Positions 9,901 through 29,857 of a stretch of 64,000 nt of DNA are shown one piece after another. The notes under the pieces are model-generated. The model did no database searches and had not been told where the DNA came from. It worked only from the letters and a program-made list of their open reading frames with translations. Each line of letters starts with the position of its first letter. Position 1 is the first letter of the stretch. The stretch is from a virus: positions 14,344 to 78,343 of the IMG/VR virus record IMGVR_UViG_3300029454_000001, one strand, 5' to 3'. A program made the position numbers and the translations under genes.

Positions 9901-11624
9901 TCGTCACCAGCTGTTTCTATACCGCCTAAGTTAGATACAATATCACTAACTCCACTCTGCGAGCCTTTTAGTTTCTTACCCATCAATACATACATGAAGT
10001 TGCGGAATGCATTTGCGGCTTGCATAAGCTTTGACATGAGCGCATTAAGTGCTTGAATAGCCGGAAGGATTCCAGCAATTAAGCCTTGCCCGATTACTGC
10101 GGAAAGTGACTGGAAATTCAGAGTGAGTAAACGAACCTGGTTCGCCCATGTGCCAGATGTCCTTGCGAAATCCCCTTGCACATCACCTGTAACTGACATT
10201 AAATAGTTATATCGAAGAGCTACTTTTTCAGCTTGAGACATTGCATTATAAGATGTTGTAATTCCCCTTGAAAGAGCATAAGCCTCCATATTTGCAACGG
10301 ATAAATTAATGCCCAATTGTCTTAAAGGCTCAATTTCCCCGGAAATTCCAGAACGTATTTTCTGAAAAGCAGTATCGGTATCAACATTGTAAAATGATGC
10401 AATATCCCCGGCTAATCCAGCAAGAGAAATTGACATTTTAGAAGCTGCATCTTGCGCAACACCAGATGATTTCATCATTGCCATCATGGTTCCAGAATAT
10501 TGCTTTGCTGCCAATTCTGATAATCCAAATTGTTCTTTGGCCGTAGAAGCAAATTTGTAGGCTTCATCTGCCATGCTTCCAAAGGAAACATCTACAACAT
10601 TTTCGATTTCTGTAATAGCAGAGCCAAAACCAATTGCACTTTTTCCTAAATTTGCCAGACCACGAATAGCCTTAAAACCGATAGCAGTTTTAAGCAAATT
10701 TCCGAGATTAAAAGAAGCGGTTTTAATTCCAGAACTACTATTCCCGAGACGTTGAAACCATCCAATAATGCCTTTTACCCCGGTTCCAATTATAGAAGAA
10801 GTTTTACTAACAATATTACCAAGGCTAGATGTTGCAGATGATAATTTAGAAAACGCACTGGATATAGAATTTGTAGCGGAATTCACTTTACCGCCAGAAT
10901 TTGCCAACTTTGCTAGTGCTTCCGTCATGCGGATTGTGTTATCACTGATTTTAGGTGCAGTTTTCATCACGTCAAAGAAAGATAATACTTCCTTTGCTAG
11001 TGTTCCAAGTTGGCTTGACGTTTGTCCGATTTTATTTCCAGAGCTTGCCAATTGTGCAATAGACTGAACTAACCTATTTACAGGTTCAGATATATCGCCA
11101 ACGCTCGTAAAACTCTCTACGATTGATTTAAGATTTCTTCCAAGCCCAGGCAATTCAGCAGATACATTCGCAATATATTCACCAGAATTGGCTAGTCTAG
11201 CCATTGAATTGACAAAACGATTAACACTGGTAGATACATCTGGAATCTCTGCCAAATTGCTTAATTGATGGATTATTTCTCCAAGTTTCCCAGAATCAAA
11301 TCCACTAACATCAACCTGGCTAAGCCTGTTGATTGAGTTGATAACTGCATTCAGACCAGAACCTTTATAATCTACTCCACCCATTGTCTTTATGGAATTT
11401 GAGAATTTTCCAATTCCATCAGCAATGCTTGTCATTTTCCCTATATCAAGTTCTTTTAGTTTTCCAAGTTCCCTTACACAACTACGTAATCCGTTTGTAT
11501 TAACTCCGCTTAATGCGGAATTAACTTCTGTGAGTTTGTTTGAAAGATTAGTCAGCGCACGTACTGCTTTTTCTGTGCTACTGCTAATCTGTATATCAAG
11601 GGTATCAATGGTATTTTCAGCCAT
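6933..11624 (-). CDS. tail tape measure protein
   Basis: 1563 aa, coiled/helical and Gly/Ala/Ser-rich, follows the chaperone pair; core region FGSMADEAYKFASTAKEQFGLSELAAKQYSGTMMAMMKS is typical of TP901-type tape measure proteins. Confidence 0.9.
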   Translation of the reverse strand: MAENTIDTLDIQISSSTEKAVRALTNLSNKLTEVNSALSGVNTNGLRSCVRELGKLKELDIGKMTSIADGIGKFSNSIKTMGGVDYKGSGLNAVINSINRLSQVDVSGFDSGKLGEIIHQLSNLAEIPDVSTSVNRFVNSMARLANSGEYIANVSAELPGLGRNLKSIVESFTSVGDISEPVNRLVQSIAQLASSGNKIGQTSSQLGTLAKEVLSFFDVMKTAPKISDNTIRMTEALAKLANSGGKVNSATNSISSAFSKLSSATSSLGNIVSKTSSIIGTGVKGIIGWFQRLGNSSSGIKTASFNLGNLLKTAIGFKAIRGLANLGKSAIGFGSAITEIENVVDVSFGSMADEAYKFASTAKEQFGLSELAAKQYSGTMMAMMKSSGVAQDAASKMSISLAGLAGDIASFYNVDTDTAFQKIRSGISGEIEPLRQLGINLSVANMEAYALSRGITTSYNAMSQAEKVALRYNYLMSVTGDVQGDFARTSGTWANQVRLLTLNFQSLSAVIGQGLIAGILPAIQALNALMSKLMQAANAFRNFMYVLMGKKLKGSQSGVSDIVSNLGGIETAGDDASSGLDDATSSAKKLKKALSVLPFDQLNQLTDNSDNSGTESKSLGSGLGDLADSFAGIQDSLDEVLTVDETPINKWAAKIRKAFINKDWQGLGFTIADMINVGMQKIYEVINWNNVGPKITEFVNAFTTAFNSMVSGIDFDLMGRLLGAGINTAVNTLNLLLGDGGIDFSGIGAKLSQLLKGAIKEIDWTGLGNLIGNSFMASWKMLSGFVKDMSKKDGAGITGWGKLGTAIGKALNGAIKKIDMNTIADALSGLLNGAFESLKSFTETFNWDDLATKIRDGIAKFIKETNWKENGQALGDFISHLCTALKDSLTTDTFYEFGQGVGTFLGELPWGEILSTAADLILGGLSDAFNGLVDGIKENHPLVGSLVDILGKAFIAVKIANITGISTLVGSLVGHIASKIAEKKNAEMIAEKLADVLGDGTSGAKEAIKDLGDAAGSSSSKFGSLTKALGPLVGEAGLIVAVGVAAAGATSQLAGLVETMQGGNGVGTTFGNTMNNFIQTLQRRGDILSGSAEEIWQLKESLEQEGMTAEDKAKATQKLIDKLGEMGVTSDQAEQAFSQLNQKGLITDDMFKILSDSIKTLDDKTTNMSGSIDLSKQSIDDLYDTVLPQLQTQLGLSADEMVSLDTALMEAENSGGTAQDAFDNIMARAKELGINTESVAKIFAQVFPDSVKEMETKTKTSISSTNTFVKTGMGSISKATGTAMSGIQTATEKAMSAAQTKVKTSTENISSDSKTNWGNSASAVSTALGTMDTDTKDVMGKVMTTIQSYWSSVLINTNQIWEKASGKVDTETQKMKTYTENNLSGISDKIKGLFSVDLTSAGQQAAQSYVNGMKLVSFPTLSYKISEWKKHNLGGGKTSSTPVYSPNWYYPNWYAKGGLFNGAQVIGIGEAGSEAVLPLENPRTMKKIADSIVSSSDGSMGLTKEEMTKAVAQGVAMAMSMNSGNNNPQYIMNSIILDGSEIAKAVTKAQNDTDSRFKPSPAY

Positions 11625-11671
11625 TTTATTTATCCCTCCTTTTTTACAAAAAAATAAAGGGCAGACAAGAC

Positions 11672-12085
11672 TTATTCATCCTGCCTGCCCTTTTCATGGT
11701 TAAGCTCAAAGCTCGCCTGCATGAGTTGCAAGCTTGCCAAAAGTGCGTTTCTCTGTTTTTTCTTTTCTTCTTCGGAAAGTATGCCTTCCTGTTTACGCTT
11801 TTCTTCCTCTGATGATTCAAGTAAAGGTTTCTTCAAATACTCTGCCTTGGATTTTTTTCCCATTAAAGCATTTGCAACAGCTGTGAATGTGGCTGATGTT
11901 TCATAAATGCCCGCTTGCCAAAGCTCAGCGTCTTTTCTTTTTTGCCGTATCTTTTCAGCTTCGAGATAAGGTTTTAATTCCGCTGGAGTAGAATCCATAA
12001 ATTCTTCTTTAGATACACCAATAGAGAGGTATAAAGGAAGAATCTCTTGGTAAACAGCTTCTCGAAAAGTTAATTTTTCTTTTTG
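11672..12085 (-). CDS. -1 frameshift extension of the tail assembly chaperone (T part of G-T)
   Basis: The -1 frame is open from at least 12100 through 11672 and crosses the G stop; an A-rich slippery run lies at 12085-12073. Confidence 0.6.
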   Translation of the reverse strand, partial: QKEKLTFREAVYQEILPLYLSIGVSKEEFMDSTPAELKPYLEAEKIRQKRKDAELWQAGIYETSATFTAVANALMGKKSKAEYLKKPLLESSEEEKRKQEGILSEEEKKKQRNALLASLQLMQASFELNHEKGRQDE

Positions 12086-12498
12086 TGATCCTGTGGGAGC
12101 TTCGTTGCATTCTTCTCTACTGCCTGTGCTTCTGCTACTGCATTCAGCAGACCGGATAAAAAACCATTTTTCTCCAATTCTTTATCAAGAAGTTGGTATA
12201 AATCAAATCCGCTTTTAGGATTTTCCTCGGTTCCTTCATCTTCGTAATCATCCAAAAGGTCACAGACTTTATCAAGAACAGCTTTTTTTTCAGAATCACT
12301 TTCATACCCAAACTCATCCTTGTGCTTCTTTTGAAGTCCGGCAAGAAGCAGTTCCGGAAGAAGAGAAATCATCTTCTGAAGGCTTCTCTCTTTTCCGTCT
12401 GTAATTCCCTGTACCTTGTCCAGCACATCTGTCTTTGTAAGAAGTCCATATCCAAATACAACCTTATACTCTTTTCCGTGTACATTAAAAGTTACCAT
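12070..12498 (-). CDS. tail assembly chaperone (G-like)
   Basis: 142-aa acidic protein between the major tail protein and the tape measure, ending in ..QDHKKKN on the slippery run. Confidence 0.7.
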   Translation of the reverse strand: MVTFNVHGKEYKVVFGYGLLTKTDVLDKVQGITDGKERSLQKMISLLPELLLAGLQKKHKDEFGYESDSEKKAVLDKVCDLLDDYEDEGTEENPKSGFDLYQLLDKELEKNGFLSGLLNAVAEAQAVEKNATKLPQDHKKKN

Positions 12499-12522
12499 TT
12501 TATAATCCTCCCGACATGTTTT

Positions 12523-13053
12523 TTAGTTAAGTGTCATTGCACCTGTGGAATCTGCTACTGCTTTTGCGGTATCTAAAGCCTGCGTAAGTTCGTCAGAAAC
12601 AACTTTTGTATCAAGGCCTTTATACTCTTGAATAATGAGGGACAGCGGAATTGTTGCTGCTTCATTCTGTCCAATATCAGACAATGGAATATTTTTTCCA
12701 GGGTCTGCGATAACAAAGAATGCATCAGCGAGGTCTGGAAATACAACTTCAAACCAAACTCTAAATCCTTTTGACTTTCCTGTTGCCGCATCAGTCATAA
12801 GCTTCTTTAGTGCCGTGATAACATCAGCGTTAAGATTGAAGGTTACATCCCAAGTACCACCAGTATCCTGTCTACCGGACGCATACTGTGTAATGAAGTC
12901 TTCGAGTGCGGATACGTCAATCTGCTCTGTGTCAAGAGAAATTCCACCGATGGAACTACATCTTTTTAACCATGTGAATGCAGTTGGCTTTGTTCCTTTA
13001 GCGGTTTCAACACCGTAATGAAAAGTTACGCCAAGTGTTGTTAAATCTGCCAT
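12523..13053 (-). CDS. major tail protein
   Basis: 176 aa; position and TFHYGVETAKGTKPTAFTWLKRCSSIGGISLDTEQIDVSALED resemble phi13/TP901-type major tail proteins. Confidence 0.75.
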   Translation of the reverse strand: MADLTTLGVTFHYGVETAKGTKPTAFTWLKRCSSIGGISLDTEQIDVSALEDFITQYASGRQDTGGTWDVTFNLNADVITALKKLMTDAATGKSKGFRVWFEVVFPDLADAFFVIADPGKNIPLSDIGQNEAATIPLSLIIQEYKGLDTKVVSDELTQALDTAKAVADSTGAMTLN

Positions 13054-13128
13054 TTTGATAGGCTCCTTTCTTTAATTCAAGTTTTATGCACGTAACCCTG
13101 TGCCGGGAGATAGCGGATCACCGCCTTT

Positions 13129-13341
13129 CTACTCTTCTTTGTCTGTTTTCAGTTCTGGTAATCCTGCTACAGATGTAAGCAGTGATAAAAAGCCGGAAAG
13201 TAAAGATGCGGATAAAACCATTTTCCAGTCGACACTGCCGATTACAGTTGCGGTTCCAATGGTTGCTATTGCTGTTTGTGCGACTGTTTTTACGGCTCTA
13301 ATTCCTGCTGCTTTCAGCCAAAGTAATTTGTCTGCTTTCAT
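13129..13341 (-). CDS. holin-like small membrane protein (LL-H-type pattern)
   Basis: AGIRAVKTVAQTAIATIGTATVIGSVDWKMVLSASLLSGFLSLLTSVAGLPE. Start moved to ATG 13341, behind SD AAAGGAGAA. Confidence 0.5.
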   Translation of the reverse strand: MKADKLLWLKAAGIRAVKTVAQTAIATIGTATVIGSVDWKMVLSASLLSGFLSLLTSVAGLPELKTDKEE

Positions 13342-13393
13342 TCGACATTCTCCTTTCATATTTTTGAATAAAAAAATAGAAGCATTTCTGCTC

Positions 13394-13798
13394 CTAATCT
13401 AATAAAGTTCCTGTATATATTCGGCTGTATCGGCTTACAAGCTTTTTGATTCCACTGTCACCAAAAAACATAGGTTCCGGTCCGTATGTGCGGCGGAATC
13501 CCATTCTCACCATAGTTATGTGACTTATCTCATCCAATTCATACAATCTGGTTAATGCTTTGCTCCCAGATGTGAAGCAATTTACTTGAAATGATGGCAT
13601 TGTTGCACATTCATCCCCTTCAAGGTCACCTCTTGTAATTGGATTACCAAGCATATAAAGCTGTGCATATGCTTTTTTACCGGAAGCATTTGTTTCACTA
13701 CCATCCATGGAATAATTGTCTGCGCCAGTAATCTTAGAAACAGCCGCTCCCCATTTTGAAAAAACTTCCAGTACAGGGGATTCTATTGTGTCCGGCAT
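13394..13798 (-). CDS. putative tail completion/terminator protein
   Basis: 134 aa immediately upstream of the major tail gene; start ATG 13798 behind GAGGTGA; assigned by position only. Confidence 0.4.
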   Translation of the reverse strand: MPDTIESPVLEVFSKWGAAVSKITGADNYSMDGSETNASGKKAYAQLYMLGNPITRGDLEGDECATMPSFQVNCFTSGSKALTRLYELDEISHITMVRMGFRRTYGPEPMFFGDSGIKKLVSRYSRIYTGTLLD

Positions 13799-13811
13799 AT
13801 CTGTCACCTCA

Positions 13812-13849
13812 CAATAAAAAAATGCACTCACCTTTATAGTGAATGCATT
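13812..13849 (-). terminator. intrinsic terminator inside the neck/tail gene row
   Basis: Minus strand AATGCATTCAC-loop-GTGAGTGCATT followed by TTTTTTAT, 14 nt before the start at 13798. Confidence 0.6.
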
Positions 13850-13876
13850 GCATGTTATACTACAATTTAACACTGT

Positions 13877-13925: not shown

Positions 13926-14441
13926 TTAGGAATAGAATACCTCTTTGGCAATTTTGCGGATATTCTGAATGATTTCTACGCTTGCCTTATACATTGGCAT
14001 TGTAGCTTCTGTACCGTAAGAACGTACCCATTCGCCGGAATCAGAAATATATACCCAGGAATCGTTTTTTCCTTTTCCTTGTCCGTAAGAACCGATTGTA
14101 TAACCAAATTCTTCTCCTTTTGGATGTGGGCTAGAACCGGCTGCACCATTGTGGTAAATACCAGCGCCGAATTCAATGAATAAAATGCTTTTGCCTTCGC
14201 ATATTAAATGGGCTTCTGCATAGTCCCCAAAACTGTTAATTTTGATGTAAGTATTGTGGTTCTTATCAGAATCGCCTTGTGCTGCCAAAATATTTTGGTC
14301 AATAACTGGAATCCCTAATTCACATAATCTTTTTATGAAAATTTCATTTTTGTTCCTTAAAGATTTTTGATAATTTTTTATTTCATCAATAGCTTTTTGG
14401 ATTGATTTCTGTGATAAGGTACACTTTATTGTCTTACCCAT
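13926..14441 (-). CDS. HK97 gp10-like head-tail joining protein
   Basis: FIEFGAGIYH...GTEATMPMYKA pattern; start ATG 14441 overlaps the upstream stop (ATGGGTAA) behind AGAGGAA. Confidence 0.5.
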   Translation of the reverse strand: MGKTIKCTLSQKSIQKAIDEIKNYQKSLRNKNEIFIKRLCELGIPVIDQNILAAQGDSDKNHNTYIKINSFGDYAEAHLICEGKSILFIEFGAGIYHNGAAGSSPHPKGEEFGYTIGSYGQGKGKNDSWVYISDSGEWVRSYGTEATMPMYKASVEIIQNIRKIAKEVFYS

Positions 14442-14826
14442 CTTCGTTTCCTCTTTTAGAAATTCCGTATCTGGCAATATTGCCTTTTTGTGTGTCTAAA
14501 ATCTTCTTTAGTGTGTAGTCTGGCAATACTGTGGGCTCTTCATCTTTGTTCAAAATAAGGCTTCCGTCCTCGCTTATTTGTGGAATTCTATCTATCCAAA
14601 ATATGTCCGCTTCCTGTGGGTGGAAATTTCGATTAAAGCTTGTAATGTATCTGTCATAATCTGGCACTATTCCAGCTGCAATTTCTTCTGGTGTTCCGGC
14701 TGTAGATGATACAGAAAAAGAGTATAGAACTGGTTTCTCATAAACTTTAATACGGTCTAATCCTTGCGTTTTTTCAGTAATTCGAGACCAATATACTTTT
14801 TGCTTTTGACGGACTAATCCTCTCAT
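14434..14826 (-). CDS. putative head-closure / head-tail adaptor protein
   Basis: 130 aa; assigned by position next to the gp10-like gene only. Confidence 0.35.
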   Translation of the reverse strand: MRGLVRQKQKVYWSRITEKTQGLDRIKVYEKPVLYSFSVSSTAGTPEEIAAGIVPDYDRYITSFNRNFHPQEADIFWIDRIPQISEDGSLILNKDEEPTVLPDYTLKKILDTQKGNIARYGISKRGNEDG

Positions 14827-14870
14827 ATTTCCTCTCTTTCTTAAATTTGGTTGCTTAACTAAAGCATACT

Positions 14871-16922
14871 TTAAGTAATTCCCACATTATCTGCATTAAG
14901 AGATGATGCTGTATTGCCATGAGATGTTTTAGAAAGTTTTGATTCACCGATGACATACTCAAACGAATCTAATCCCATCTCTTCTGAATAGCAAGTGTTA
15001 TTAATTGCTTCTATTTCAAAATTTACGCTGTCTCCAAGATTTCCTCGAATGCTACCGCTATATCCATAGTTACTTGTCATCACACAATTTCTAAGCACAA
15101 GGAGCTGGTTTGGAGCAGAATGATAATTCGATGAATGACACAGAAATGCGCCTTTCCAATTGTCTTTTTTGAAATACTCTTTGCTGCAATTTCTAATCAT
15201 TTCGCAATTTTCAAAAATTATTTTTTGATTCTGATTGACTCCCATTCCAACTGCTGGAAACGCTTCACTGTATAAGGTACAGTTGACGACTCTTCCAGTT
15301 GTTTTTTCGTTGACATCTTTCGAGTTTCCGTCGATGTGCAACGCATATCCGGGATATGTCGCCCATACATTATCTGTGTACTCCGGAACAAAACCTTGTT
15401 CCTCCATCCGAATTGTTAAATTGCGAAGCTCAAAATTTCCGGTTACCATTACGGGAGTATTAGCATATATTCCAGATGTATTTTTGATGATACACTGATC
15501 TCGATTAACTCCAATTATTGATATGTTGTGTTTGTTTCCGAGATACACAATTTCATCGTATACGCCTTCTTGGAGAACTATTGTTGTAGGCGAATCTACA
15601 TCGCCCGCATTCCGAACTGCGTCCATTATTGTTGAGTAATCCCCCGTTCCATCTTTTGAAACGTGAATGATTCCGCTTTTGTACTTTGGAATTTCCTCTT
15701 CCATGTATACATCAATGCACGGATATGTTTTGTTGGTTGATATATTGCCGCTCCAATAGTTTTGTGGCGGAATGTAATTATTGATTTCTACATTGAAATC
15801 TAAAAAATTTCCATACCATGTAAATGGTTCACCGTTAGAATACAGATACAACTGCCCGCTTTGGCTGGTGAATGCACCGCTGTCGTTGGAATAAATTGCA
15901 ATGCTTATATAATCATGTCCTTCAGATGGCGAAGAATCAAACATACTTTCGGAGATATCAATTTCAATTTCGTTTTTTCCTGCTGTTAGCACATACGATT
16001 TCTTAAAAACTAAAATCTGTGTGTACGTAGAGTCTGGTCTATATAAAAAAATCGTTCCGGTACCACCATTTGAGAGTATTGATAACTTCAATTTTTTTAC
16101 ATTTCGGAAAATTCTTGTCTTGTCTCCGAGAGTATATACATAATCGGCATTGATATTCATTGTTGGGGCATTTTTCAGATAATCGCATTTCAGCGATATT
16201 TTGACAGACTCTTCAATTCCCAAGACGTTTATATCTCCCTTTAGCGAACCAATAGCTTCTCCCGTTGCTTTTGCTTCTGCAAGCCCACCTTCTATAGTCA
16301 ATGTAGTGTCTGGCTGTGATACACTCTGGATATCCTTAATAGCTTGTTCTTTTGCGGAATTTACATTTTGAACAGCTTCCGCAGATGTGTTTTTAGTAAG
16401 CTCCAAAAGCTGATTTATAACATCTTTTTCTTCCTGTCCTATCTGTGGTTGATCAATCTCGATACCCTCTAGCACTGGTACTTCCGCTATTGCGGTATTC
16501 CATTCAACACTAATATTTGAATCGGAATCCGTTTTAACAGCGCAAACAATAAAACGTACCGTTCCCATATACCTTGCTGCATTTCTTCCAATCAACCAAG
16601 AAAAAGTTACATTTTCGCCATCTACAGCTACATCATCACAAATGTATTGGTCTTTGATAGAAACATTAAAATCCACACTGCTTACGTTTTCGAAGTTAAT
16701 TCTGACTGAAAATTTGGATAAATCAAGATTATCTCCTACAATTTTGGGACATGAAAATTTAATACGTTCTGCATTCTTGTCAGATTGTACCCCACCAACT
16801 ACGATTGTAGAGGGCACGAAAATAGCCCTTGTCTTATCGTCAATTGTGCATATATCGGATTCTTCAGAAAGCAAATTAACATCTTCTTTTGCGCTCATAA
16901 GTAAATCAAGTGCTGTTGCCAT
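14871..16922 (-). CDS. tail fibre / receptor-binding protein with C-terminal right-handed beta-helix (pectin-lyase fold, pectinesterase-like start)
   Basis: The N-terminal ~150 aa resemble BppU-type baseplate/fibre N-domains. IIHVSKDGTGDYSTIMDAVRNAGDVDSPTTIVLQEGVYDEIVYL..NISIIGVNRDQCIIKN resembles the start of pectinesterase-like beta-helices. Confidence 0.6.
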   Translation of the reverse strand: MATALDLLMSAKEDVNLLSEESDICTIDDKTRAIFVPSTIVVGGVQSDKNAERIKFSCPKIVGDNLDLSKFSVRINFENVSSVDFNVSIKDQYICDDVAVDGENVTFSWLIGRNAARYMGTVRFIVCAVKTDSDSNISVEWNTAIAEVPVLEGIEIDQPQIGQEEKDVINQLLELTKNTSAEAVQNVNSAKEQAIKDIQSVSQPDTTLTIEGGLAEAKATGEAIGSLKGDINVLGIEESVKISLKCDYLKNAPTMNINADYVYTLGDKTRIFRNVKKLKLSILSNGGTGTIFLYRPDSTYTQILVFKKSYVLTAGKNEIEIDISESMFDSSPSEGHDYISIAIYSNDSGAFTSQSGQLYLYSNGEPFTWYGNFLDFNVEINNYIPPQNYWSGNISTNKTYPCIDVYMEEEIPKYKSGIIHVSKDGTGDYSTIMDAVRNAGDVDSPTTIVLQEGVYDEIVYLGNKHNISIIGVNRDQCIIKNTSGIYANTPVMVTGNFELRNLTIRMEEQGFVPEYTDNVWATYPGYALHIDGNSKDVNEKTTGRVVNCTLYSEAFPAVGMGVNQNQKIIFENCEMIRNCSKEYFKKDNWKGAFLCHSSNYHSAPNQLLVLRNCVMTSNYGYSGSIRGNLGDSVNFEIEAINNTCYSEEMGLDSFEYVIGESKLSKTSHGNTASSLNADNVGIT

Positions 16923-16925
16923 GTT

Positions 16926-17243
16926 CTACCCCCTCTGTGATACTTTAGTTTTACCAGTGGTTATAATGTATTTTCCGTTATCTTTTACGCCAGTGACAGA
17001 TACAGAAAAATAATCCCAAGTAAGGGCTTCCGTTGGAATTTCACATTGATTGTTTTTCAGTATTACTGGGTATTCTTTTTCCATTCTCCAAAATGAAGCA
17101 GCTGTTTTACATCCGTTCCACTCTGGTGAAAAGATAAACAATGCTTTAAGATATCCAGTCGTGCCCTTTACCAGTCCAGAGAAATCACACTTGGGATCTG
17201 GATAAATTCTTTGATTATTTACAATAAATCTTAATACTCTCAT
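16926..17243 (-). CDS. small fibre-associated protein
   Basis: Start at ATG 17243 (ATGA overlap with the upstream stop); 105 aa directly upstream of the fibre gene. Confidence 0.4.
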   Translation of the reverse strand: MRVLRFIVNNQRIYPDPKCDFSGLVKGTTGYLKALFIFSPEWNGCKTAASFWRMEKEYPVILKNNQCEIPTEALTWDYFSVSVTGVKDNGKYIITTGKTKVSQRG

Positions 17244-17626
17244 GCAGTCATCCTTTCCATTCCAACAGGGGCTACATATGTGAATTGGTTTCCCAAAATA
17301 TCTCTGGCTGTGCCAATCACGAAATGGCTGTAGTCTGCCAGAATATTGCATATAAATTCCTCTGCGTCAACCCAATATCGTTTCTTGACCATGCGGTGGA
17401 GCTCTGGTAATAGACCATAGCTGAACATTACACAATGTCCTAACTCATGGATAAATACACGGTTTAGAAGTTCTCCATGTAGGTTGTTCGCAATCGAAAT
17501 AATATGGGTGGAATAATCCGATACTCCAAGTGTTCTGTTTCCTGTGCGGTCAATTAAAACATCATCTTGTGGTGGAACAAACTGCACTCTCCATAAATCT
17601 CCATTCATGTAGAATTGTCGTAGCAT
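17240..17626 (-). CDS. small zinc metallopeptidase-like protein (HExxH)
   Basis: FIHELGHCVMF motif in a 128-aa protein. Confidence 0.5.
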   Translation of the reverse strand: MLRQFYMNGDLWRVQFVPPQDDVLIDRTGNRTLGVSDYSTHIISIANNLHGELLNRVFIHELGHCVMFSYGLLPELHRMVKKRYWVDAEEFICNILADYSHFVIGTARDILGNQFTYVAPVGMERMTA

Positions 17627-17649
17627 GGTTTATTACCATCCTTTCTACG

Positions 17650-17685
17650 AAAAAAGCCCCTGCCGCATTAATTTGCGACAAGGAC
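17650..17685 (-). terminator. intrinsic terminator closing the low-complexity gene unit
   Basis: Minus strand GTCCTTGTCGCA-AATTAA-TGCGGCAGGGGC (12 bp including 3 G-U pairs) followed by TTTTTT. Confidence 0.6.
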
Positions 17686-17702
17686 TTAATTCATTTATTG
17701 CT

Positions 17703-18335
17703 TTAGTTCATCTGCTGTACAAGTCTGGTCAGGTCAGTTTTCATCTGCTGTCTGAGCGTTGCATCTGCATCCGACCACATTTCCGTGAGATTACGGATAA
17801 TATCAGATGTGTACTCCTTCATGGAATCATCCATTTTTCTTTTGGATTCCGTGTCTTTGGAATCATGATAATGCCTACGATTCTCATCGTATCTATCATA
17901 GGATTCGCCATATCTGGACTTCTTCCAATTCATATTCATACCATCATTTTCCATATCACTACGCTCTGGATGATATCCCATGCGGTACATATTGCGCTCA
18001 AATTCTGGATTGTTTAAATACTCATCCATCCAGTCATCATCCTGCATATACAGATACGGTCTATAGCCTTTTCTGGTTCCCCTACCTTTTGGAGCGAAAC
18101 GCCCATTTGAATAGCGGTAACGGTCATATCCCATGCGTCCAAGATACTTTTCTTCCTGTTCGCATTCGTCCATAGCTTCTACGATTCTGTAATCTTTATC
18201 TGCACAAATCGCGCACTTTACGGATTCCATGCAGTCTTTCAGATCGTCCCAGTCTTGAGCACTGAGATTATCAAAGCCATGTGTTTTGGCTTTTTCCATA
18301 GCCCATTTTCCCATTTCCATTGCAACTTTATGCAT
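17703..18335 (-). CDS. hypothetical R/Y/D/M-rich low-complexity protein
   Basis: 210 aa; GRMGYDRYRYSNGRFAPKGRGTRKGYRPYLYMQDDDWMDEY..; start overlaps the upstream stop. Confidence 0.5.
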   Translation of the reverse strand: MHKVAMEMGKWAMEKAKTHGFDNLSAQDWDDLKDCMESVKCAICADKDYRIVEAMDECEQEEKYLGRMGYDRYRYSNGRFAPKGRGTRKGYRPYLYMQDDDWMDEYLNNPEFERNMYRMGYHPERSDMENDGMNMNWKKSRYGESYDRYDENRRHYHDSKDTESKRKMDDSMKEYTSDIIRNLTEMWSDADATLRQQMKTDLTRLVQQMN

Positions 18336-18760
18336 TACAGTGCCCCCTTTCTAACAGCCTGCGTAACAGGTGCTTCTGTCGTTGGGGCTGTACCATTAAT
18401 TGCTTTCAAATTGTTGCTCGGACTACAAGCCGGATTTCCTAACATCTTGAATACTCCGCCAGTTGCACTTGTAGCTACTCTGGTTGCGTACTTCGTTCTG
18501 GTTCTTATCCCACAAGCCGTAATCTGTGCACAGCAACGATTTTCTAGCGGATACAAAGTTGTTCCTGTTCCTATCTGAATCATTACCGGAGCAGTAATTG
18601 TAGTGGCTTCTGGTATACTTTGTGCAACAACAATACAATATTTTTCTCCATTGTTGTAACTGCCTGCTGGGAGTGTGATTACAAGATTACCTCCTGTAAA
18701 CGCAACAGCTTGGCTTATTACAAGACGGTTGCAGAGCTTACAAACATTTTTACAACTCAT
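18335..18760 (-). CDS. hypothetical Cys-rich protein
   Basis: MSCKNVCKLCNRLV...RCCAQITACG; ATG 18760 behind GAGAGGTAG. Confidence 0.5.
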   Translation of the reverse strand: MSCKNVCKLCNRLVISQAVAFTGGNLVITLPAGSYNNGEKYCIVVAQSIPEATTITAPVMIQIGTGTTLYPLENRCCAQITACGIRTRTKYATRVATSATGGVFKMLGNPACSPSNNLKAINGTAPTTEAPVTQAVRKGAL

Positions 18761-18777
18761 ATTTCTACCTCTCAATC

Positions 18778-18808
18778 AAAATAAGAGGTGAGCCGTAACC
18801 CACCTCTT
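18778..18808 (-). terminator. intrinsic terminator after the Gly/Cys-rich gene
   Basis: Minus strand AAGAGGTG-10 nt-CACCTCTT followed by ATTTTG. Confidence 0.6.
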
Positions 18809-18838
18809 AGAATTAGTCAACCTCTAAGGGCGAGTTAC

Positions 18839-19639
18839 TTAGCAACAACCGTTACCATATGTATTACATCCTGCGTATGCATATGGAGCTGGAACCTGGA
18901 ATGCAGGAATCGGAGCCGGGTTGATTGCATTGATTAATCTCTGAGCCTGTGCGTACATCTCTGTTGTAAGCAATGCAGACTGGCGATCCTGGGATGCAGC
19001 ACGTTTCAGATCAGAGTTCTCTGCCTGTAATGTTGCAATCTTATCGTTAGTCAGGAAGTCAAGGATTGCTCTTGTGTTGCTGTTCTGGTTTTCCAGAAGG
19101 TCTCTGGTGTTGTTATTCATTGTGTTCTGGAGAGCACAAGTGTTGGTAGCAAGGTTGTAGTTGATACCTTGGATTGCTTCTCTTGTTTCACAGCAACAGT
19201 TTGCTAACTGAGACTGTAATGCGTTGGTATTCTGCATACCGGCTACAGTATCAGCATTGATTGCCTGCTGAACGCCGTTGAAGCCTTGAAGCATTCCGAC
19301 ATTCATACCATTAAAGCCACTCTGCATGGTATTGTTAAGAGAATATGTGCTGTCACAGATACCCTGCTGAATACCTCTGATACCATTCTGAATATCATTA
19401 AGGGCGAATTCCTCATTAATATCTGAACGGGTAGCCCATCCTTGGAAACCTGCACCATTTGTACCGTTTCCACCATTGCCACCCCAGCCGCCAAAGCCGC
19501 CGAAACCGCCCCAGCCGAAGATGAGCAATATAATAATCCACCATGCCCAGCCACCGCCAAAGCCATAGCCTTCATCGGCACGGTTATTAGAGCCGCTTAA
19601 TACAGCGACATCGCTTGCTGATAATCCACCATTCATCAT
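18839..19639 (-). CDS. hypothetical Gly/Asn/Gln/Cys-rich membrane-anchored protein
   Basis: GYGFGGGWAWWIIILLIFGWGGFGGFGGWGGNGGNG (TM segment in a Gly-rich context), CCCETRE, C-terminal AGCNTYGNGCC; SD AAGGAGG. Confidence 0.55.
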   Translation of the reverse strand: MMNGGLSASDVAVLSGSNNRADEGYGFGGGWAWWIIILLIFGWGGFGGFGGWGGNGGNGTNGAGFQGWATRSDINEEFALNDIQNGIRGIQQGICDSTYSLNNTMQSGFNGMNVGMLQGFNGVQQAINADTVAGMQNTNALQSQLANCCCETREAIQGINYNLATNTCALQNTMNNNTRDLLENQNSNTRAILDFLTNDKIATLQAENSDLKRAASQDRQSALLTTEMYAQAQRLINAINPAPIPAFQVPAPYAYAGCNTYGNGCC

Positions 19640-19716
19640 AGCGATTACCTCCTTATTGATTTTTGTAATTTATACAAAATCAAAAGACCGCGGCTCTTTT
19701 AATTATTGTAGCGAAT

Positions 19717-19956
19717 TTATTTTATTCCAAACTGGCTCTTAACCTGCGACAGTATATCGTCTGGATTAATATTTCTTTCTTTACAAAGATTTCTTGCAAG
19801 TTTTTCAATTCCTGCATTATCACCTTTTTCCATCATGTTAATTGCATTGTCAATTACAGGATTATTTCCAGACTGTTGTTTCATCATATTGATTATGGCT
19901 TGTTGAGGATTCCCTCCACCACGTATCATCTGCATAAGTTGCATTGGATTCATCAT
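19717..19956 (-). CDS. hypothetical Met/Asn/Gln-rich small protein
   Basis: 79 aa; start overlaps the upstream stop. Confidence 0.45.
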   Translation of the reverse strand: MMNPMQLMQMIRGGGNPQQAIINMMKQQSGNNPVIDNAINMMEKGDNAGIEKLARNLCKERNINPDDILSQVKSQFGIK

Positions 19957-20450
19957 CTCTGTTTACCTCCATTCTGCTTGGGTTCCGGTGTTCCAGACAT
20001 TTGTGTCGGGAACATACTCTTTATTTCGGAAATCTCAGAACAAACATCGTTCCGAAGCTGATTAAACATAGCTTCTATGTCAATCGGTTTTTCTTCTGCC
20101 TTTGGTTGCTGTTGTTCTTCCGGATTTATAAGTCGATAAACAAAAATTCTACTTCTTCCATCTGCCTGTAATTGTTTTCTATATATTTCTGTTCCATCTG
20201 TTTTTGGATAATAAACAGGGTTTCCAGACATATCTACGTCTTTTGCCTTTACGGTATCAATACCATCGACCATCTGTCCTTGCAACATGGGGATTTGTGG
20301 TACTTGTGGCATTTGTTGTATTGGTTGCTGAATCTGAGCCTGCCCGTATGGCATTGCCTGCTGATAACTATTCTGCAATTGTGCTAATCTATCTTGATAC
20401 GGTTGTATTTGTTGAAATGGTTGTGCAAAATACGGATTACCATACTGCAT
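19953..20450 (-). CDS. hypothetical Gln/Pro-rich protein
   Basis: N-terminal QPFQQIQPYQDRLAQLQNSYQQAMPYGQAQIQQPIQQMPQVPQIP; SD GGGAGG. Confidence 0.5.
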   Translation of the reverse strand: MQYGNPYFAQPFQQIQPYQDRLAQLQNSYQQAMPYGQAQIQQPIQQMPQVPQIPMLQGQMVDGIDTVKAKDVDMSGNPVYYPKTDGTEIYRKQLQADGRSRIFVYRLINPEEQQQPKAEEKPIDIEAMFNQLRNDVCSEISEIKSMFPTQMSGTPEPKQNGGKQR

Positions 20451-20508
20451 ATCTCAAACCTCCCTTGTTTTTATAACTATATTTTACAATAATAAGAGGT
20501 TAATTAAC

Positions 20509-20537
20509 ACGCCATGATAACGCCATAAATACGCCAC
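20509..20537 (-). promoter_or_regulatory. three helically phased direct repeats upstream of a TAAAAT -10 element
   Basis: Plus strand ACGCCAT/ACGCCAT/ACGCCAC starting at 20509, 20520 and 20531 (11-nt period); on the minus strand TGGCGT x3, then TAAAAT at 20486-20481. Confidence 0.45.
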
Positions 20538-20540
20538 ATT

Positions 20541-20780
20541 TTATGAATACAAAGAAAAGCCCCGACAATACATCGGGGCGACTTTCATAATTTTCTTCTT
20601 TAATTTTCTGTTTATGCGGTCTACTGTTCTTGTGCTGTAACCCATGATTTCTGAAGCTTCTGCAAGTGTTTTTTCTTCGTAAACACGCAATCGGAATAAC
20701 TCTTTTTCTCTGGAATCAAATCCAGCTTCACGCAAATAGAAGATTCTTTCATCTTCCGAAAAGTCTTTATAATTATCCAT
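20541..20780 (-). CDS. sigma-70 region-4-like HTH protein
   Basis: REKELFRLRVYEEKTLAEASEIMGYSTRTVDRINRKLKKKI; start ATG 20780 behind GGGAGGA (ORF-track start 20840 trimmed). Confidence 0.55.
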   Translation of the reverse strand: MDNYKDFSEDERIFYLREAGFDSREKELFRLRVYEEKTLAEASEIMGYSTRTVDRINRKLKKKIMKVAPMYCRGFSLYS

Positions 20781-20811
20781 TCCACCGTCCTCCCTGTTAG
20801 TGGAATCAATA

Positions 20812-21123
20812 TTACACCGGGAAAATGCCTTTAAGGGCAAAGCCTAAAATAATACCGATTATGCCAGTTATGACATAAGCAATAATTTTGTCCTGTAATT
20901 TTCCTGGTTTTTCCATGAGTGCTTTTAAATTGTCGTTCATTTCGTCAACTGTATCTTTGATGTGTCCCAGATCGTTGTTGTATAAAGCAATTTTCTGTTC
21001 TAGCGCATTGATACGATTAAAAAAGCCTTCATCCCTTTTGGAATGCTTTTCTTTCATCTCACGGACGGCATTTTCCAATTCTTCCAAGCGGTGTTCGTTG
21101 ATACACTCGTGTTCACATCCCAT
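20812..21123 (-). CDS. XhlA-like protein (coiled coil plus C-terminal TM)
   Basis: 103 aa; N-terminal coiled coil (LEELENAVREMKEKH..INALEQKIALYNNDLGHIKDTVDEMNDNLKAL) and C-terminal TM IIAYVITGIIGIILGFALKGIF. Confidence 0.55.
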   Translation of the reverse strand: MGCEHECINEHRLEELENAVREMKEKHSKRDEGFFNRINALEQKIALYNNDLGHIKDTVDEMNDNLKALMEKPGKLQDKIIAYVITGIIGIILGFALKGIFPV

Positions 21124-21230
21124 CGCTATTCCTTTCCATCACTCCCATTTTTAAGATATTGCTTCTACCCACCTAATTTGAAGCACCCCTGCGATACGTG
21201 GGAGGATTGACGTATCACGCACACACCATC

Positions 21231-21759: not shown

Positions 21760-22797
21760 TTATTCCCCCGCTTTGGTACCGATTACGATACCGCCGTTAG
21801 CTTTCGGTGCGACCGGAACGAACATGCCGGATGCTTTTGTCCATACTGCAACTGGGTCTGGTGTAGCCCACATGGAAAGAGTAACAAAGGAACGATTCTC
21901 TTCCTGTATAAACTGTCTGTATTCAAGCTCTTCTGGTGTCACACCCCATAGGCCAACACCGAAAGAACCGTTAGCATCTGCTTCATACAGAGTAAATACA
22001 TCCTCTTTGAGGTATCTGGCCGTTTTCAGGGTTCCATCTGCTTTTCTGAAATTAAAGTTCTCATCACAACGATCAATTGTGATTCCATATTCCTGCATAA
22101 GCAGATTGGCAAGCTCCTGCTTTGTGAGAAGCCTTTTATTTGCAGCACCCAGAACAGCTGTCTGCATTGCAGTGTTGTTCCGCATGTAGTTAATCATTTT
22201 AAGAGAAGTAACAGCTTTGTTTACTACATAGCCATTGCCTTCTGCTACAGCTACCATTTTCTGGATATCGCCCATGATATCTGCATCTGGCTTAGACCAA
22301 TCAGTAAGCGTTACTTTTGCACTTGCTGGAACGCCATAGTCAATTCCCATGTCAACATGGTTCTCTTTGATTGTTACAGCACCAGTGGAAAGGAACTGTC
22401 CTTTCATAACATTTGCTCTTGTAACAACGCCCTCGAACAGTCTGGCTGCATCATCAAATACAAAGTTTTTCAGTGCTTCATTATCCGGCACACCGTTTTC
22501 AATTGCCTGCCGTAAGTTTTCGGACTGATTGATTTTTCTCTTAATGAAGAGTTTTTCAGTCAGGACTTTTTCAAATCCAGGTCTTGTGCCGATTTCTGCT
22601 TCGCTATCAAGAGCGTGGACGAATGCAACTTCCGGTAGATTCTGTCCAGCCATAAGTCTGTAATACTCTGCTTTCAGATACTGGGTTTTTGTATCTGGGA
22701 AAATGGTATCGAGGATACCTGGTCTTTTAACACTGAAATTCTGAGAGAAATTAAGTCTTTCTTCTTGGGTAATTGATTCCAAAATATTAAATGGCAT
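21760..22797 (-). CDS. major capsid protein (lambda gpE-like, HK97 fold)
   Basis: 345 aa after the scaffold and decoration genes; sequence resembles the phage major capsid protein E family. Confidence 0.8.
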   Translation of the reverse strand: MPFNILESITQEERLNFSQNFSVKRPGILDTIFPDTKTQYLKAEYYRLMAGQNLPEVAFVHALDSEAEIGTRPGFEKVLTEKLFIKRKINQSENLRQAIENGVPDNEALKNFVFDDAARLFEGVVTRANVMKGQFLSTGAVTIKENHVDMGIDYGVPASAKVTLTDWSKPDADIMGDIQKMVAVAEGNGYVVNKAVTSLKMINYMRNNTAMQTAVLGAANKRLLTKQELANLLMQEYGITIDRCDENFNFRKADGTLKTARYLKEDVFTLYEADANGSFGVGLWGVTPEELEYRQFIQEENRSFVTLSMWATPDPVAVWTKASGMFVPVAPKANGGIVIGTKAGE

Positions 22798-25574: not shown

Positions 25575-25997
25575 TCATCTTTCAAAACCTTTTATCTTTT
25601 TTATTTCTGCTATGGCTTTTAAATGCTTTTTTTTAATGTGAATCTCTGAATAACCCATCTCGTCTGCAATGCGAACCAAAGATTTGTACTCAACATAATG
25701 CTTAAATAGTATGTCGTATAGCAACGGGTCTTCAACCTGTTCTATAGTTCGAACTATTTCTTGTCTTTTTTGTATAAATTCAGATATCATTTTTGAAATC
25801 TCTTCTCGCAGATCAAATATCTTTGCAACCATATCTCCCATCGGATCACGTTTTACAGAAGTTTGTACCTTTTCTCCAACAGGGATTGCAGATACACTTG
25901 TGGAAAGAGAACTGAGCTGTTCTTCTTCGATAAGCTTGTTTTTGATTCTGTTATCATAATTTTCAATCTGTCGTAAATATTGAGTTGCAGTCATCAT
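25575..25997 (-). CDS. sigma-r4/DUF1492-like phage transcriptional regulator
   Basis: 140 aa; C-terminal ILFKHYVEYKSLVRIADEMGYSEIHIKKKHLKAIAEI HTH; unusual position between terL and portal. Confidence 0.45.
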   Translation of the reverse strand: MMTATQYLRQIENYDNRIKNKLIEEEQLSSLSTSVSAIPVGEKVQTSVKRDPMGDMVAKIFDLREEISKMISEFIQKRQEIVRTIEQVEDPLLYDILFKHYVEYKSLVRIADEMGYSEIHIKKKHLKAIAEIKKIKGFER

Positions 25998-29178: not shown

Positions 29179-29202
29179 ACATTCACCTCAAATAAATTTA
29201 CA

Positions 29203-29838: not shown

Positions 29839-29857
29839 TTAATATTTCCTCCAAGTT

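Follow-up and report, generated by a model that had tools for sequence, protein, structure and literature searches.

Accessory gene sets of several described kinds offer points of comparison for the locus reported here. Morons, in the concept of Hendrix and colleagues, and the lysogenic-conversion cassettes of lambdoid and Gram-positive temperate phages are described as autonomous promoter-gene-terminator units that lie between late genes or between lysin and attR. Other relevant systems are PBSX (xpf; xhlA-xhlB-xlyA), the UviA/UviB-bcn genes of Clostridium perfringens, TcdR/TcdE of the C. difficile pathogenicity locus (PaLoc), the spanins, and the fibres and appendages represented by T4 wac, the lactococcal neck passage structure (NPS) and phi29 gp12. 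The locus is a block of about 6 kb in a 64,000-nucleotide stretch of viral DNA, hereafter the window, which covers positions 14,344 to 78,343 of the IMG/VR virus record IMGVR_UViG_3300029454_000001. It consists of ten minus-strand open reading frames (ORFs) at 14871-21123, reaching from a 106-aa gene 3' of the capsid gene to a 130-aa gene at 14434-14826. The block very probably comprises two adjacent and separable units, a mobile gene cassette (Unit A, 17,240/17,703-21,123) and a slot for fibre genes, here holding a pair (Unit B, 14,871-17,243). We give the whole of the explanation developed below, the function proposed for the cassette included, a probability of about 0.4.

In kind the cassette comes nearest to morons and lysogenic conversion units, and in its first two genes to the late and lysis modules of PBSX type. 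Like a moron, the cassette is an extra transcription unit amid structural genes, marked at the sequence level by terminators and a promoter-like site; it occurs at varying places in genomes, mostly after lysis genes or at a prophage end, and the canonical gene order does without it. It differs in being a conserved set of seven or eight genes with its own regulator rather than one or two genes and in occurring also in virulent crAss-like phages; the combination of own promoter and terminator that marks a moron was found only at the level of consensus sequences. Its composition is not deviant either. The original prediction had called the block foreign-looking, but its GC fraction (0.36-0.44) is close to that of the flanks (0.39-0.42) and lies within the range of the whole window (0.31-0.44). 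With PBSX the cassette shares an XhlA-like protein, a small sigma-related regulator and, elsewhere, frequent holin and endolysin neighbours, whereas the window's XhlA-like protein falls below the family threshold, its regulator has region 4 only, no holin or lysin adjoins, and the five cargo proteins are without counterpart in PBSX.

The block had been predicted to part the connector from the head-closure, gp10-like and tail-terminator genes, and two relatives bear out that it breaks the order leading from the major capsid protein (MCP) through the adaptor to the neck genes. Enterococcus phage phiEf11 (MCP 32% identical) encodes capsid, adaptor, minor head protein, gp10-like protein, tail terminator and tail tube in succession, and the metagenomic phage MT835513 (MCP 45% identical, decoration protein homologous) encodes capsid, small genes, a 711-aa tape-measure-like gene and tail genes. 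In both of these distant relatives with homologous MCPs, four small genes and no insert separate MCP and tail tube, so the block breaks up a gene order that they have preserved. Every ORF described earlier was recovered on the minus strand at the coordinates given for it, although eleven genes had been counted where there are ten. The names proposed for the flanking genes ('gp6-like connector', 'head closure', 'gp10-like', 'tail terminator') drew no support from PHROGs, Pfam or PDB sequences, and hidden Markov model (HMM) searches matched the flanking genes to none of the neck proteins of phiEf11 and MT835513; these names are read only from the position and size of the genes, which lie between a verified MCP and a weakly matching tail tube.

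The window belongs to a lineage of human gut metagenome contigs of about 80 kb, with MCPs 92-100% identical in the set fetched. In every one of the 92 distinct relatives a block fills the interval from connector to head closure, with a length of 2.4-9.4 kb (median 6.4 kb), and all seven core cassette families are found in 90 of them. Judged from these genomes, the block is no recent arrival in its own lineage. The proposal of a mobile island that targets the structural operon fits poorly with a position that is fixed in the lineage and with the commonest home of the cassette elsewhere, which is after lysis genes or at a prophage end. At the block borders no target-site duplication or inverted repeat was found beyond short repeats at chance level. 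A transposon-like or insertion-sequence-like island was rejected, there being no transposase or recombinase among the ten ORFs and no terminal repeats. The block also does not correspond to a universal gene order of a characterised lineage in which all products are virion parts: the order is near-universal, the lineage is uncultured and the products are uncharacterised. Each of the two readings first put forward is correct in one half: an unknown cargo that is mobile is supported, and the relocated host-recognition module, as worded, and the island aimed at the structural operon are not.

The evidence that carries the cassette comes from other genomes, where the order Xhl-sig-Q165-p79-G266-Cys146-p210(-HExxH) was found in unrelated phages at differing positions (gene names as in Table 1; comparison loci are given L numbers and families from all-ORF clustering c numbers). 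A tblastn search with G266, the signature protein of the cassette, returned 33 phage records, whose surroundings were compared by pairwise phmmer. A scan of prokaryotes, with one genome per species, returned 44 loci, mostly in Lachnospiraceae, Oscillospiraceae, Ruminococcus and other Clostridia, with some in bins labelled Collinsella, Bacilli, Mollicutes, Bacteroidales and others. At least five contexts were seen: between MuF-like and scaffold genes, after an endolysin, beside an integrase, at a prophage/chromosome junction and in a crAss-like late region. The most frequent place is 3' of an endolysin or at a prophage end. In Dulem virus 35, Xhl-like, sig, Q165, G266 and p210 genes lie between the minor capsid (MuF-like) gene and the scaffold/capsid genes, and in a 43-kb human gut lineage (e.g., L134) the stretch from MuF to scaffold encodes Xhl-like, sig, Gln-rich, ~70-aa, G266, 140-aa beta-rich and Tyr/Arg/Asp-rich proteins. 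C. perfringens phage XP41-N3 has Q165, p79, G266 and Cys146 after lysis genes and an antirepressor, Butyrivibrio phage Ceridwen has the cassette 3' of its endolysin, and MT835513 has Xhl-like, sig, c3, Q165, c7 and G266 after the tail genes, with c4 at the start of the permuted record. Endolysins adjoin the cassette at L181 and L195 (by PHROGs) and at L189 and L190 (by clustering); other neighbours identified by PHROGs were a serine integrase (L170), a helicase (L184) and an XRE regulator (L178).

Clustering of all ORFs at the 44 loci gave a consensus order that begins with a small membrane protein (Xhl-like or c8), a region-4 protein (c11 or c13) and, in many loci, c3, a family of about 126 aa with invariant Cys, His and Asp. 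There follow Q165 (40 loci), p79 or c7, and G266 (43 loci), and the order closes with c4 or Cys146, p210 (28 loci) and the HExxH family c12, c10 or c3. The Lachnospira intestinalis cassette starts some 70 nt away from a junction at which a SigG/SigF-like gene is cut short, with ordinary chromosomal genes beyond. At this junction (L169, positions 6200-6800, on a 485,898-bp contig of strain CLA-AA-H89B) the sigma homology starts ...IPMIIGEIKRYLRD, with stop codons just upstream, precisely at the start of the element that bears the cassette, and pyrI, pyrB, trpS and a ymxH-like gene lie on the far side of the element start. The element has the appearance of one that interrupts a sporulation sigma gene, much as skin interrupts sigK.

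Partial cassettes extend the distribution to phages of Bacteroidales. In crAss-like phage cr52_1 (L084, 3376-6640) a c24-family protein (1.9e-35) and a membrane protein compared by the depositors to LysB/FtsL are encoded ahead of the G266 homologue. Of the five genes translated there, three contain in-frame TAG codons, two in the G266 homologue and seven in each of two neighbours, a pattern consistent with TAG-to-Gln recoding of late genes. Upstream of this region is a pair resembling a diversity-generating retroelement (DGR), composed of an Mtd-like tail protein and a reverse transcriptase. Bacteroides phage C3_41T2LP also has a partial cassette, with a c12-type HExxH protein a few genes downstream. 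Another sign of exchange is a comparison of the window with the 43-kb lineage by BLASTP, in which capsid, portal, scaffold and connector show no similarity (E > 0.2) and G266 is 60% identical over its full length (E = 6e-101). As a whole, these comparisons give good support to a cassette that is horizontally exchanged, accessory and, at the consensus level, self-regulated.

The families themselves are large. For G266 at least 7,885 homologues were retrieved, none with a Pfam domain in the family; at 50% identity the family comprises 2,661 clusters at E <= 1e-3 and 1,434 at 1e-10. Among the best 150 representatives, no informative fusion to a known domain was found, and lengths were mostly 170-300 aa (118-399). 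Cys146, which is unusually conserved, has at least 4,904 homologues, likewise none with a Pfam domain. HNH/AP2 homing endonucleases recur inside the cassette, in unrelated prophages as well (clusters c5 and c14). At L116 a 279-aa HNH/AP2-type gene (7878-8717) lies between the G266 and Cys146 genes, as it does at L118, L122, L124, L125, L127 and L131, and the C-terminal ~70 residues of the L116 G266, next to the endonuclease, are a different sequence, as expected from co-conversion in homing. At L123 (7001-8002) G266 and the HExxH protein are fused in frame, and Cys146 and p210 are lost.

Unit B, in comparison, varies within the lineage. The original prediction had treated the fibre pair as part of a relocated host-recognition module. 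L211, a sister contig with a superinfection-exclusion (Sie)-like protein 100% identical to that of the window, encodes a 1509-aa tail protein (phrog_6616, 3e-203) downstream of the tape measure, so the tail-tip protein has kept its place behind that gene; the fibre pair is absent in 28 relatives and replaced in others. The idea that the block is the displaced main receptor-binding module was rejected in view of the same 1509-aa protein. We measured the slot in 91 of the 92 distinct relatives, leaving out L015, which has no HExxH gene. It is empty in 28 relatives, shorter than 1 kb in 8, 1-2 kb in 2, 2-3.5 kb in 48 and longer than 3.5 kb in 5. In genomes of the L008 type the 130-aa gene follows immediately on the HExxH stop codon, and blastn found the window's 14827-17231 pair to be absent. 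In L015 itself (12817-13875) a single 352-aa ORF stands in place of the whole stretch from p79 through the fibre; its product is GDSL/SGNH-esterase-like, with a GDSL motif, and matches tail-fibre PHROGs at its C-terminus.

The N-terminal third of F683 is common to relatives at 85-98% identity, and the C-terminus is swapped: in L005 and L017 only the first ~230 residues are shared and the other two-thirds are replaced. An F683-type N-terminus was found in 37 relatives, and the window's C-terminal beta-helix in none of those fetched. Within that helix, residues 419-494 score 32.3 bits with Pfam Pectinesterase (PF01095), above its cut-off of 27, in a match confined to positions 2-79 of the 298 in the model; the best PDB pectinesterase was 1xg2 (1.7e-3), NCBIfam PemA reached 18 bits against a cut-off of 700, and the QDTL and DFIFG catalytic motifs were not recognised in F683 by eye. 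The likeness to pectinesterases, which form carbohydrate esterase family 8, is at the level of fold only. The p105 ORF matches phrog_19695 (5.9e-19) over residues 37-135; we placed its start at 17243 because of the extent of this match and because fibre-less relatives keep only the part that overlaps the peptidase gene. It was found only alongside an F683-type fibre, and it is similar to part of a 708-aa tail-region protein of Butyrivibrio phage Ceridwen. The slot of L096 (9632-13287) holds a different 681-aa fibre and a reverse transcriptase (YMDD, 12061-13287); a variable repeat (VR, 11532-11643) at the 3' end of the fibre gene and a template repeat (TR, 11741-11852) form a 112-nt pair whose mismatches are all at TR adenines. 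These features indicate a bona fide DGR aimed at the fibre C-terminus, and the slot fibre of L096 is in this respect like the DGR fibres exemplified by BPP-1 Mtd. The window allele differs, having no reverse transcriptase and no long repeat that would indicate a DGR.

By these comparisons p105/F683 appears to be an optional, interchangeable accessory-fibre cassette in a hypervariable slot. Like T4 wac, the NPS and the phi29 appendages it is an optional fibre located by presumed neck genes, and as in other accessory fibres a conserved N-terminal anchoring domain is joined to an exchangeable distal domain; it differs from wac, NPS and gp12 in having no sequence similarity to them, and its neck position is read from gene order alone. 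Unit B would add optional adhesion or host-surface specificity and would not be the primary tail-tip protein, and the slot would act as a recombination hot spot, at which sister phages have either nothing or other ligand-binding fibres.

The cassette genes of the window are listed in Table 1. The XhlA-like, sigma-region-4-only, HExxH and beta-helix assignments made from the letters alone were all retained after library searches, and the five low-complexity proteins proved to be genuine ORFs with strong ribosome-binding sites, three of which match PHROG families of unassigned function. Xhl103 matches phrog_937 'hemolysin' (3.2e-14) over the full protein and Pfam XhlA (PF10779) at 19 bits, below the gathering threshold of 34.7, so we describe it as XhlA-like and not as a member of the family. 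Its homologues lead the cassette in Dulem virus 35 (8.7e-10) and MT835513 (1e-16); neither holin nor endolysin is adjacent to it in the window, whereas one of the two is adjacent in MT835513 and other phages. In sig99, Sigma70_r4 (PF04545) was found at residues 42-79 (29.1 bits, cut-off 24.1), region 2 is absent from its 79-99 aa, and NCBIfam matches cover only the C-terminal part of sigma-70 models. It reads as a DNA-binding protein with region 4 only, and not as a sigma factor, and presumably serves the cassette as its dedicated regulator. In many loci a homologue of 65-110 aa is encoded ahead of the cassette, and the two regulator clusters, c11 and c13, are related (hhalign P = 5.6e-6).

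In the place of p79, other lineages have the analogous ~70-aa family c7, to which hhalign found a weak similarity (P = 2.9e-4 over 11 columns). The alignment of G266 shows a conserved N-terminal motif, then a hydrophobic segment of 13-17 residues between Gly-rich runs, and then a ~160-residue Asn/Gln-rich helical region with an invariant CCC, PxPIPA(Y/F) and a C-terminal GC(G)C cluster. Its AlphaFold2 (AF2) model is of low confidence (predicted local distance difference test, pLDDT, 47), with helices at 81-119 and 131-239. In outline G266 is like an i-spanin, with an N-terminal anchor followed by a long helical region. It differs from spanins in having no lipoprotein partner (no lipobox was found) and no match to spanin or lysis PHROGs, in itself or its neighbours, and in being common in phages of Gram-positive Clostridia, hosts without an outer membrane. 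The start of Cys146 was corrected to ATG 18760, giving 141 aa, the length of nearly all 4,904 homologues; its AF2 model (pLDDT 48) has strands confined to residues 12-71. Other cassettes have in its slot a ~140-aa beta-rich family, c4 (phrog_20016), and the two families are mutually exclusive there. A radical-SAM reading of the CxxxCxxC of Cys146 was set aside, the protein being too small and matching no such profile. The alignments used for AF2 (53 sequences for Cys146, 49 for G266; 60-97% identity) were too shallow.

For p210, which matches its Dulem virus 35 homologue at 1e-6, searches of Pfam, PHROGs, NCBIfam and PADLOC gave nothing above cut-offs (NCBIfam E = 0.1, chance level). HEx128 matches phrog_1233 (1e-11), phrog_13742 'peptidase' (1.4e-4) and, below cut-off, Pfam DUF6782 'putative metallopeptidase' (E = 0.031). 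Its gene could either close the cassette or belong to the backbone: its family (c12) lies directly 3' of p210 in several loci of Lachnospiraceae and Clostridia and farther downstream in L169 and C3_41T2LP, and in the 43-kb lineage a similar protein lies 3' of the connector instead. Searches of the ten block proteins against Pfam, NCBIfam, PHROGs and PADLOC returned the four domain-level assignments and offered no clue to function for the five core proteins; Pfam and PHROGs gave no functional lead for the alternative families c3, c4, c8 and c10. PDB sequence and profile searches with G266, Cys146, c4, c3 and the two flanking neck genes returned no significant match, and those with F683 only the pectinesterase N-terminus. 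We treat the alternative families as analogous occupants, not homologues, because hhalign found no similarity between Cys146 and c4, p210 and c24, or c10 and c12. A known defence system was considered and rejected; PADLOC-DB 2.0 gave only weak coiled-coil matches (E >= 1e-3). In the literature, nothing relevant to the cassette, its annotations or its hosts was found.

Table 1. Features of the block and landmark structural genes of the window (positions in the window).
Feature	Position	Strand	Description
Xhl103	20812..21123	-	XhlA-like, N-terminal coiled coil and C-terminal transmembrane segment; first cassette gene
sig99	20541..20840	-	sigma-70 region 4 only; likely start ATG 20780, giving 79 aa
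Intrinsic terminator	20549..20579 (20579-20559)	-	overlaps sig99 3' end; 9-pair stem with 6 G-C, T run
Regulatory region	20476..20536	-	three TGGCGT, then -35/-10 pair, then Q165 start
Q165	19953..20450	-	Gln/Pro-rich N-terminus, small conserved C-terminal domain; phrog_21718, 6.6e-18
p79	19717..19956	-	79 aa, Gln/Met/Asn-rich, helical; two alleles in the lineage
G266	18839..19639	-	signature cassette protein; phrog_16490, 6e-69
Intrinsic terminator	18772..18809 (18809-18782)	-	after G266
Cys146	18335..18760	-	Cys-rich, beta-rich, highly conserved; CxxxCxxC N-terminus and internal CC pair
p210	17703..18335	-	helical ends, central Tyr/Arg/Asp/Gly-rich low-complexity region
Intrinsic terminator	17644..17687 (17687-17654)	-	after p210; 14-pair stem
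HEx128	17240..17626	-	HELGH metallopeptidase-like protein
p105	16926..17243	-	listed as 141-aa ORF; likely start ATG 17243, giving 105 aa
F683	14871..16922	-	accessory fibre: ~230-aa N-terminal domain, linker, C-terminal right-handed beta-helix
Large terminase	26001-27695		PHROGs
Major capsid protein (MCP)	21760-22797		phrog_29, 2.6e-41
Tail tube (weak)	12523-13053		phrog_158, 3.5e-5
Presumed tape measure	6933-11624		1563 aa; Dulem virus 35 'minor tail protein', 7.7e-64

The block had also been predicted to have a promoter-like region and several terminators of its own, and three strong intrinsic terminators and one promoter-like site were indeed found; in total there are 17 terminator-like sites in the region, against 9.0 +/- 3.1 in shuffled sequences. 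The terminator at the end of sig99 is kept in relatives. Behind those after G266 and p210 the ribosome-binding site of the next gene follows directly, with no promoter-like sequence, and these two probably act as attenuators. Between sig99 and Q165 are three TGGCGT repeats with an 11-bp period (20509-20536), the sole such array in the 64-kb window, where 100 shuffles gave an expectation of 0, and next to them a promoter scan placed a -35 TTAACC (20498-20503) and a -10 TATAGT (20476-20481). The array is kept across the lineage as three or four copies, and as two copies of ATGGCGA in a diverged branch. At the same position L134 has four AGTCATAGAA direct repeats, L183 has two TTTGACACTTTT direct repeats, and a Bacteroidales locus has a GGCATTATCATGACGT-type pair. 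No Rfam family was found inside the block.

We tentatively favour a late, envelope-acting function for the cassette, with cargo that is not part of the virion. Late transcription from the head genes would make Xhl103 and sig99 and would then be halted by the strong terminator. In this scheme sig99 would bind the three 11-bp-phased repeats and turn on the adjoining promoter, which would drive Q165, p79 and G266 strongly, the two further terminators lowering expression of Cys146 and p210 and then of the HExxH peptidase. G266 may use its glycine-flanked hydrophobic segment as an anchor in the infected cell's cytoplasmic membrane and project a long helical rod that ends in a cysteine cluster, on which the Gln-rich, Cys-rich and Tyr/Arg/Asp-rich partners would assemble, possibly trimmed by the peptidase. 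The assembly would act on the host envelope at the end of infection, as an accessory to egress or lysis, in surface remodelling or in exclusion, and would be no part of the virion. We favour this reading because each cassette has two membrane-type proteins (one Xhl-like, c8 or LysB/FtsL-like, and G266) and because its commonest neighbours are lysis genes and prophage ends. We favour it also because the carriers have unrelated capsids and tail types, from siphophages to crAss-like phages, which are a podovirus group, and because the cassette has its own regulator and has variants with most (L015) or part (L123) of it lost.

Several observations weigh against this proposal. The cassette lies amid head genes in three lineages (that of the window, the 43-kb lineage and Dulem virus 35), and in cr52_1 it lies amid structural genes with the TAG recoding typical of crAss late genes, both of which would suit a virion or head-internal protein. 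The evidence for dispensability comes from two metagenomic contigs that are possibly defective, since 90 of 92 relatives keep the whole cassette. The hydrophobic segment of G266 is short (13-17 residues), inspection of the cassette proteins found no signal peptide or lipobox, conserved Cys clusters are unusual in envelope proteins of strict anaerobes, and the AF2 models of G266 and Cys146 are poor (pLDDT 47-48). No lysis enzyme was found near the cassette in the window, and proximity to lysis genes elsewhere is weak evidence because unrelated cargo also gathers there. Binding of sig99 to the repeats is a proposal, and working terminators would force read-through or antitermination for the neck and tail genes downstream.

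The main rival to an envelope-acting cargo is a virion-associated accessory structure, either head or neck fibres or a capsid decoration, which we regard as unlikely. G266 would then be a trimeric helical stalk with its hydrophobic N-terminus plugged in the particle and with Cys146 or c4 as its distal knob. Maturation would fall to the peptidase, and the low-complexity proteins would act as cement or in assembly, with F683 in the same ornament. A structure of this kind would suit the head-gene clusters of three lineages, the structural genes and late-type TAG recoding in cr52_1, the fibre-like 563-aa gene within the head module of the 43-kb lineage, and the labels that depositors gave to crAss and Bacteroides homologues ('spike protein/glycoprotein', 'outer capsid protein/viral fiber'). 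It would also account for the long helical rod predicted for G266, for stepwise terminators, which would give a stoichiometric gradient, and for retention in 90 of 92 relatives. A docking protein, however, would be expected to co-vary with the particle, and G266 remains 60% identical despite unrelated head proteins and occurs in siphophages and crAss-like phages alike. Most of the independent contexts are outside virion modules (after the lysin, at prophage ends), the cassette has its own regulator and promoter, L015 and L123 are without parts of it, and no structural-category PHROG was matched by its proteins. If particles are involved, the proteins could instead be internal to the head, packaged and ejected with the DNA, the G266 segment entering the membrane of the next host and aiding DNA entry while the others act in the new cell, for example against defence, after processing by the peptidase. 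Processing of this sort is thought to occur with the PolyVal-type peptidases of polyvalent proteins and with T4 internal proteins. Head-internal proteins are encoded at sites such as the MuF-like/scaffold position in two lineages and the place next to the connector in the window, a small peptidase accompanies the cassette (HExxH c12 or Cys-His-Asp c3), the depositor labelled that of C3_41T2LP 'PolyVal metallopeptidase', and the ~25 conserved N-terminal residues of G266 could be a targeting or cleavage signal. We nevertheless find ejection improbable: the position of the cassette relative to portal and scaffold is inconsistent across lineages, no match was found to PADLOC, anti-defence or ejection-protein families, the promoter, regulator and XhlA-like protein are left unexplained, and membrane penetration by siphophages is normally the task of the tape measure.

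Outside the particle, the cargo might leave the cell through the phage lysis machinery with the help of a holin, as a bacteriocin-like agent or a cross-linkable matrix, in the manner of UviA/UviB with a bacteriocin or TcdR/TcdE with a toxin. The cassette resembles those systems in that a regulator and a small membrane protein (Xhl103 or c8, holin-like in the known cases) stand ahead of proteins without signal peptides, and in an evolutionary link to phage lysis modules; in several phages endolysins adjoin it, the peptidase-like c3 family is present in many cassettes, and the ~70-aa proteins have Gly-Gly in their N-termini. TcdR and UviA, by contrast, have regions 2 and 4 where sig99 has region 4 only, the cargo is unrelated and matched no bacteriocin, toxin or ribosomally synthesized and post-translationally modified peptide (RiPP) family, G266 looks anchored rather than released, and the carriers include virulent crAss-like phages of Bacteroidales besides clostridial prophages, all of which makes such release quite improbable. 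Very improbable, in our judgement, is a sporulation module, in which mimics of coat or exosporium proteins and a GerE-sized regulator would modify spores or hitch-hike in them. The bacterial hosts are mostly Lachnospiraceae, Oscillospiraceae and other Clostridia, the Lachnospira intestinalis cassette ends an element inserted in a SigG/SigF-like sigma gene, and the Gln-, Cys- and Tyr/Arg/Asp-rich proteins resemble coat proteins, but in composition only. Pfam and NCBIfam gave no match to GerQ, CotZ/ExsY, DUF3992/Ena, the BclA C-terminal domain or other coat families (E <= 0.01 / 0.1 for the window proteins, E <= 0.1 for the alternative cassette proteins of other lineages), and G266 homologues are found in non-spore-formers (Bacteroides and crAss-like phages; bins of Bacteroidales and Collinsella). 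Ejected proteins, holin-assisted release and a sporulation module were all rated less likely than a virion ornament.

Elsewhere in the window nearly all annotated ORFs of at least 90 aa are on the minus strand, exceptions including an immunoglobulin (Ig)-domain ORF at 688-1629 and small ORFs at 38-40 kb. Close to the block, the 107-nt spacer between the connector-like and Xhl-like genes contains an inverted repeat, GCGTGATACGT ... ACGTATCGC, at ~21188-21220, without a T run. Between the presumed tail terminator and the tail-tube gene is a 76-aa protein with two transmembrane segments (13129-13359; phrog_443 'holin', 1e-14), and Dulem virus 35 has an annotated 'holin' at a comparable place, 3' of its connector. 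A regulator-like 140-aa gene occupies an unusual place between the large terminase and portal genes (25575-25997); its product matches DUF1492 (5e-6) and phrog_36 (2e-19) and, less strongly, antiterminator Q and sigma region 4, and it may be relevant to reading through the terminators inside the block.

The tape-measure gene is followed not by distal tail genes but by a second island, which occupies window positions 1-6818 and continues past the left edge. It encodes a Rha/antirepressor-like regulator, an HNH endonuclease, a DnaD-like replication protein, a membrane protein, a superinfection-exclusion-like lipoprotein and, on the opposite strand, the Ig-domain protein. In L211 (5824-19608) two more antirepressors come after the island genes, then phrog_1194 and then the 1509-aa tail protein. 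An Rfam int-alpA small RNA motif (5657-5724, minus strand, 49 bits against a gathering threshold of 35.8) lies between the HNH endonuclease gene and a 98-aa ORF. A tRNA cluster at 28310-34084 comprises four genes found by ARAGORN (Ser-tga, two Met-cat, Gln-ttg) and a fifth that is matched by the Rfam tRNA family over 114 nt (33026-33139); beside it are an RNA ligase (phrog_14301) and a 483-aa phrog_850 'RNA-binding protein', and the cluster with its ligase is possibly a module for tRNA repair or supply. A large serine recombinase gene (41942-43711) sits amid phage genes. The 24 contigs read with an identical recombinase are all shorter than 200 kb, and in L239-L242 (28-83 kb) bacterial chromosome was not reached, with phage genes on both sides. 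To judge from these contigs, the lineage is mostly assembled as a free genome of about 80 kb.

Judging from the library searches, the five core cassette proteins appear to belong to no characterised family; G266 and Cys146 have thousands of relatives and yet no Pfam domain, solved relative or name. That the function is of a kind so far undescribed is an open possibility. One such late function, common to gut phages from Crassvirales to clostridial siphophages and in our view rather unlikely, would be a self-assembling structure, nucleated by G266 as a membrane-anchored helical rod, matured by the peptidase and cross-linkable through Cys, Tyr and Gln. It would take shape on or within the host cell as it dies, for example as a coat, a lattice or an occlusion-like matrix; we know of no equivalent in tailed phages. 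If true, the cross-linked structure could shield the phage progeny in the gut or keep it there, or remodel the envelope for its release.

The cassette set and its regulator have spread through thousands of gut phages, in hosts among the Clostridia and Bacteroidales and with crAss-like phages included, and the groups that carry it count with the most abundant human gut viruses. Such a conserved multi-gene module that is exchanged among phages is a concrete experimental target, and at least three cultured phages have a version of it, namely Ceridwen, XP41-N3 and C3_41T2LP. The head-neck junction of the abundant ~80-kb lineage is in addition a recombination hot spot for interchangeable fibres, including DGR-diversified ones, and the storage of fibres at this junction bears on host range and on adhesion in the gut.

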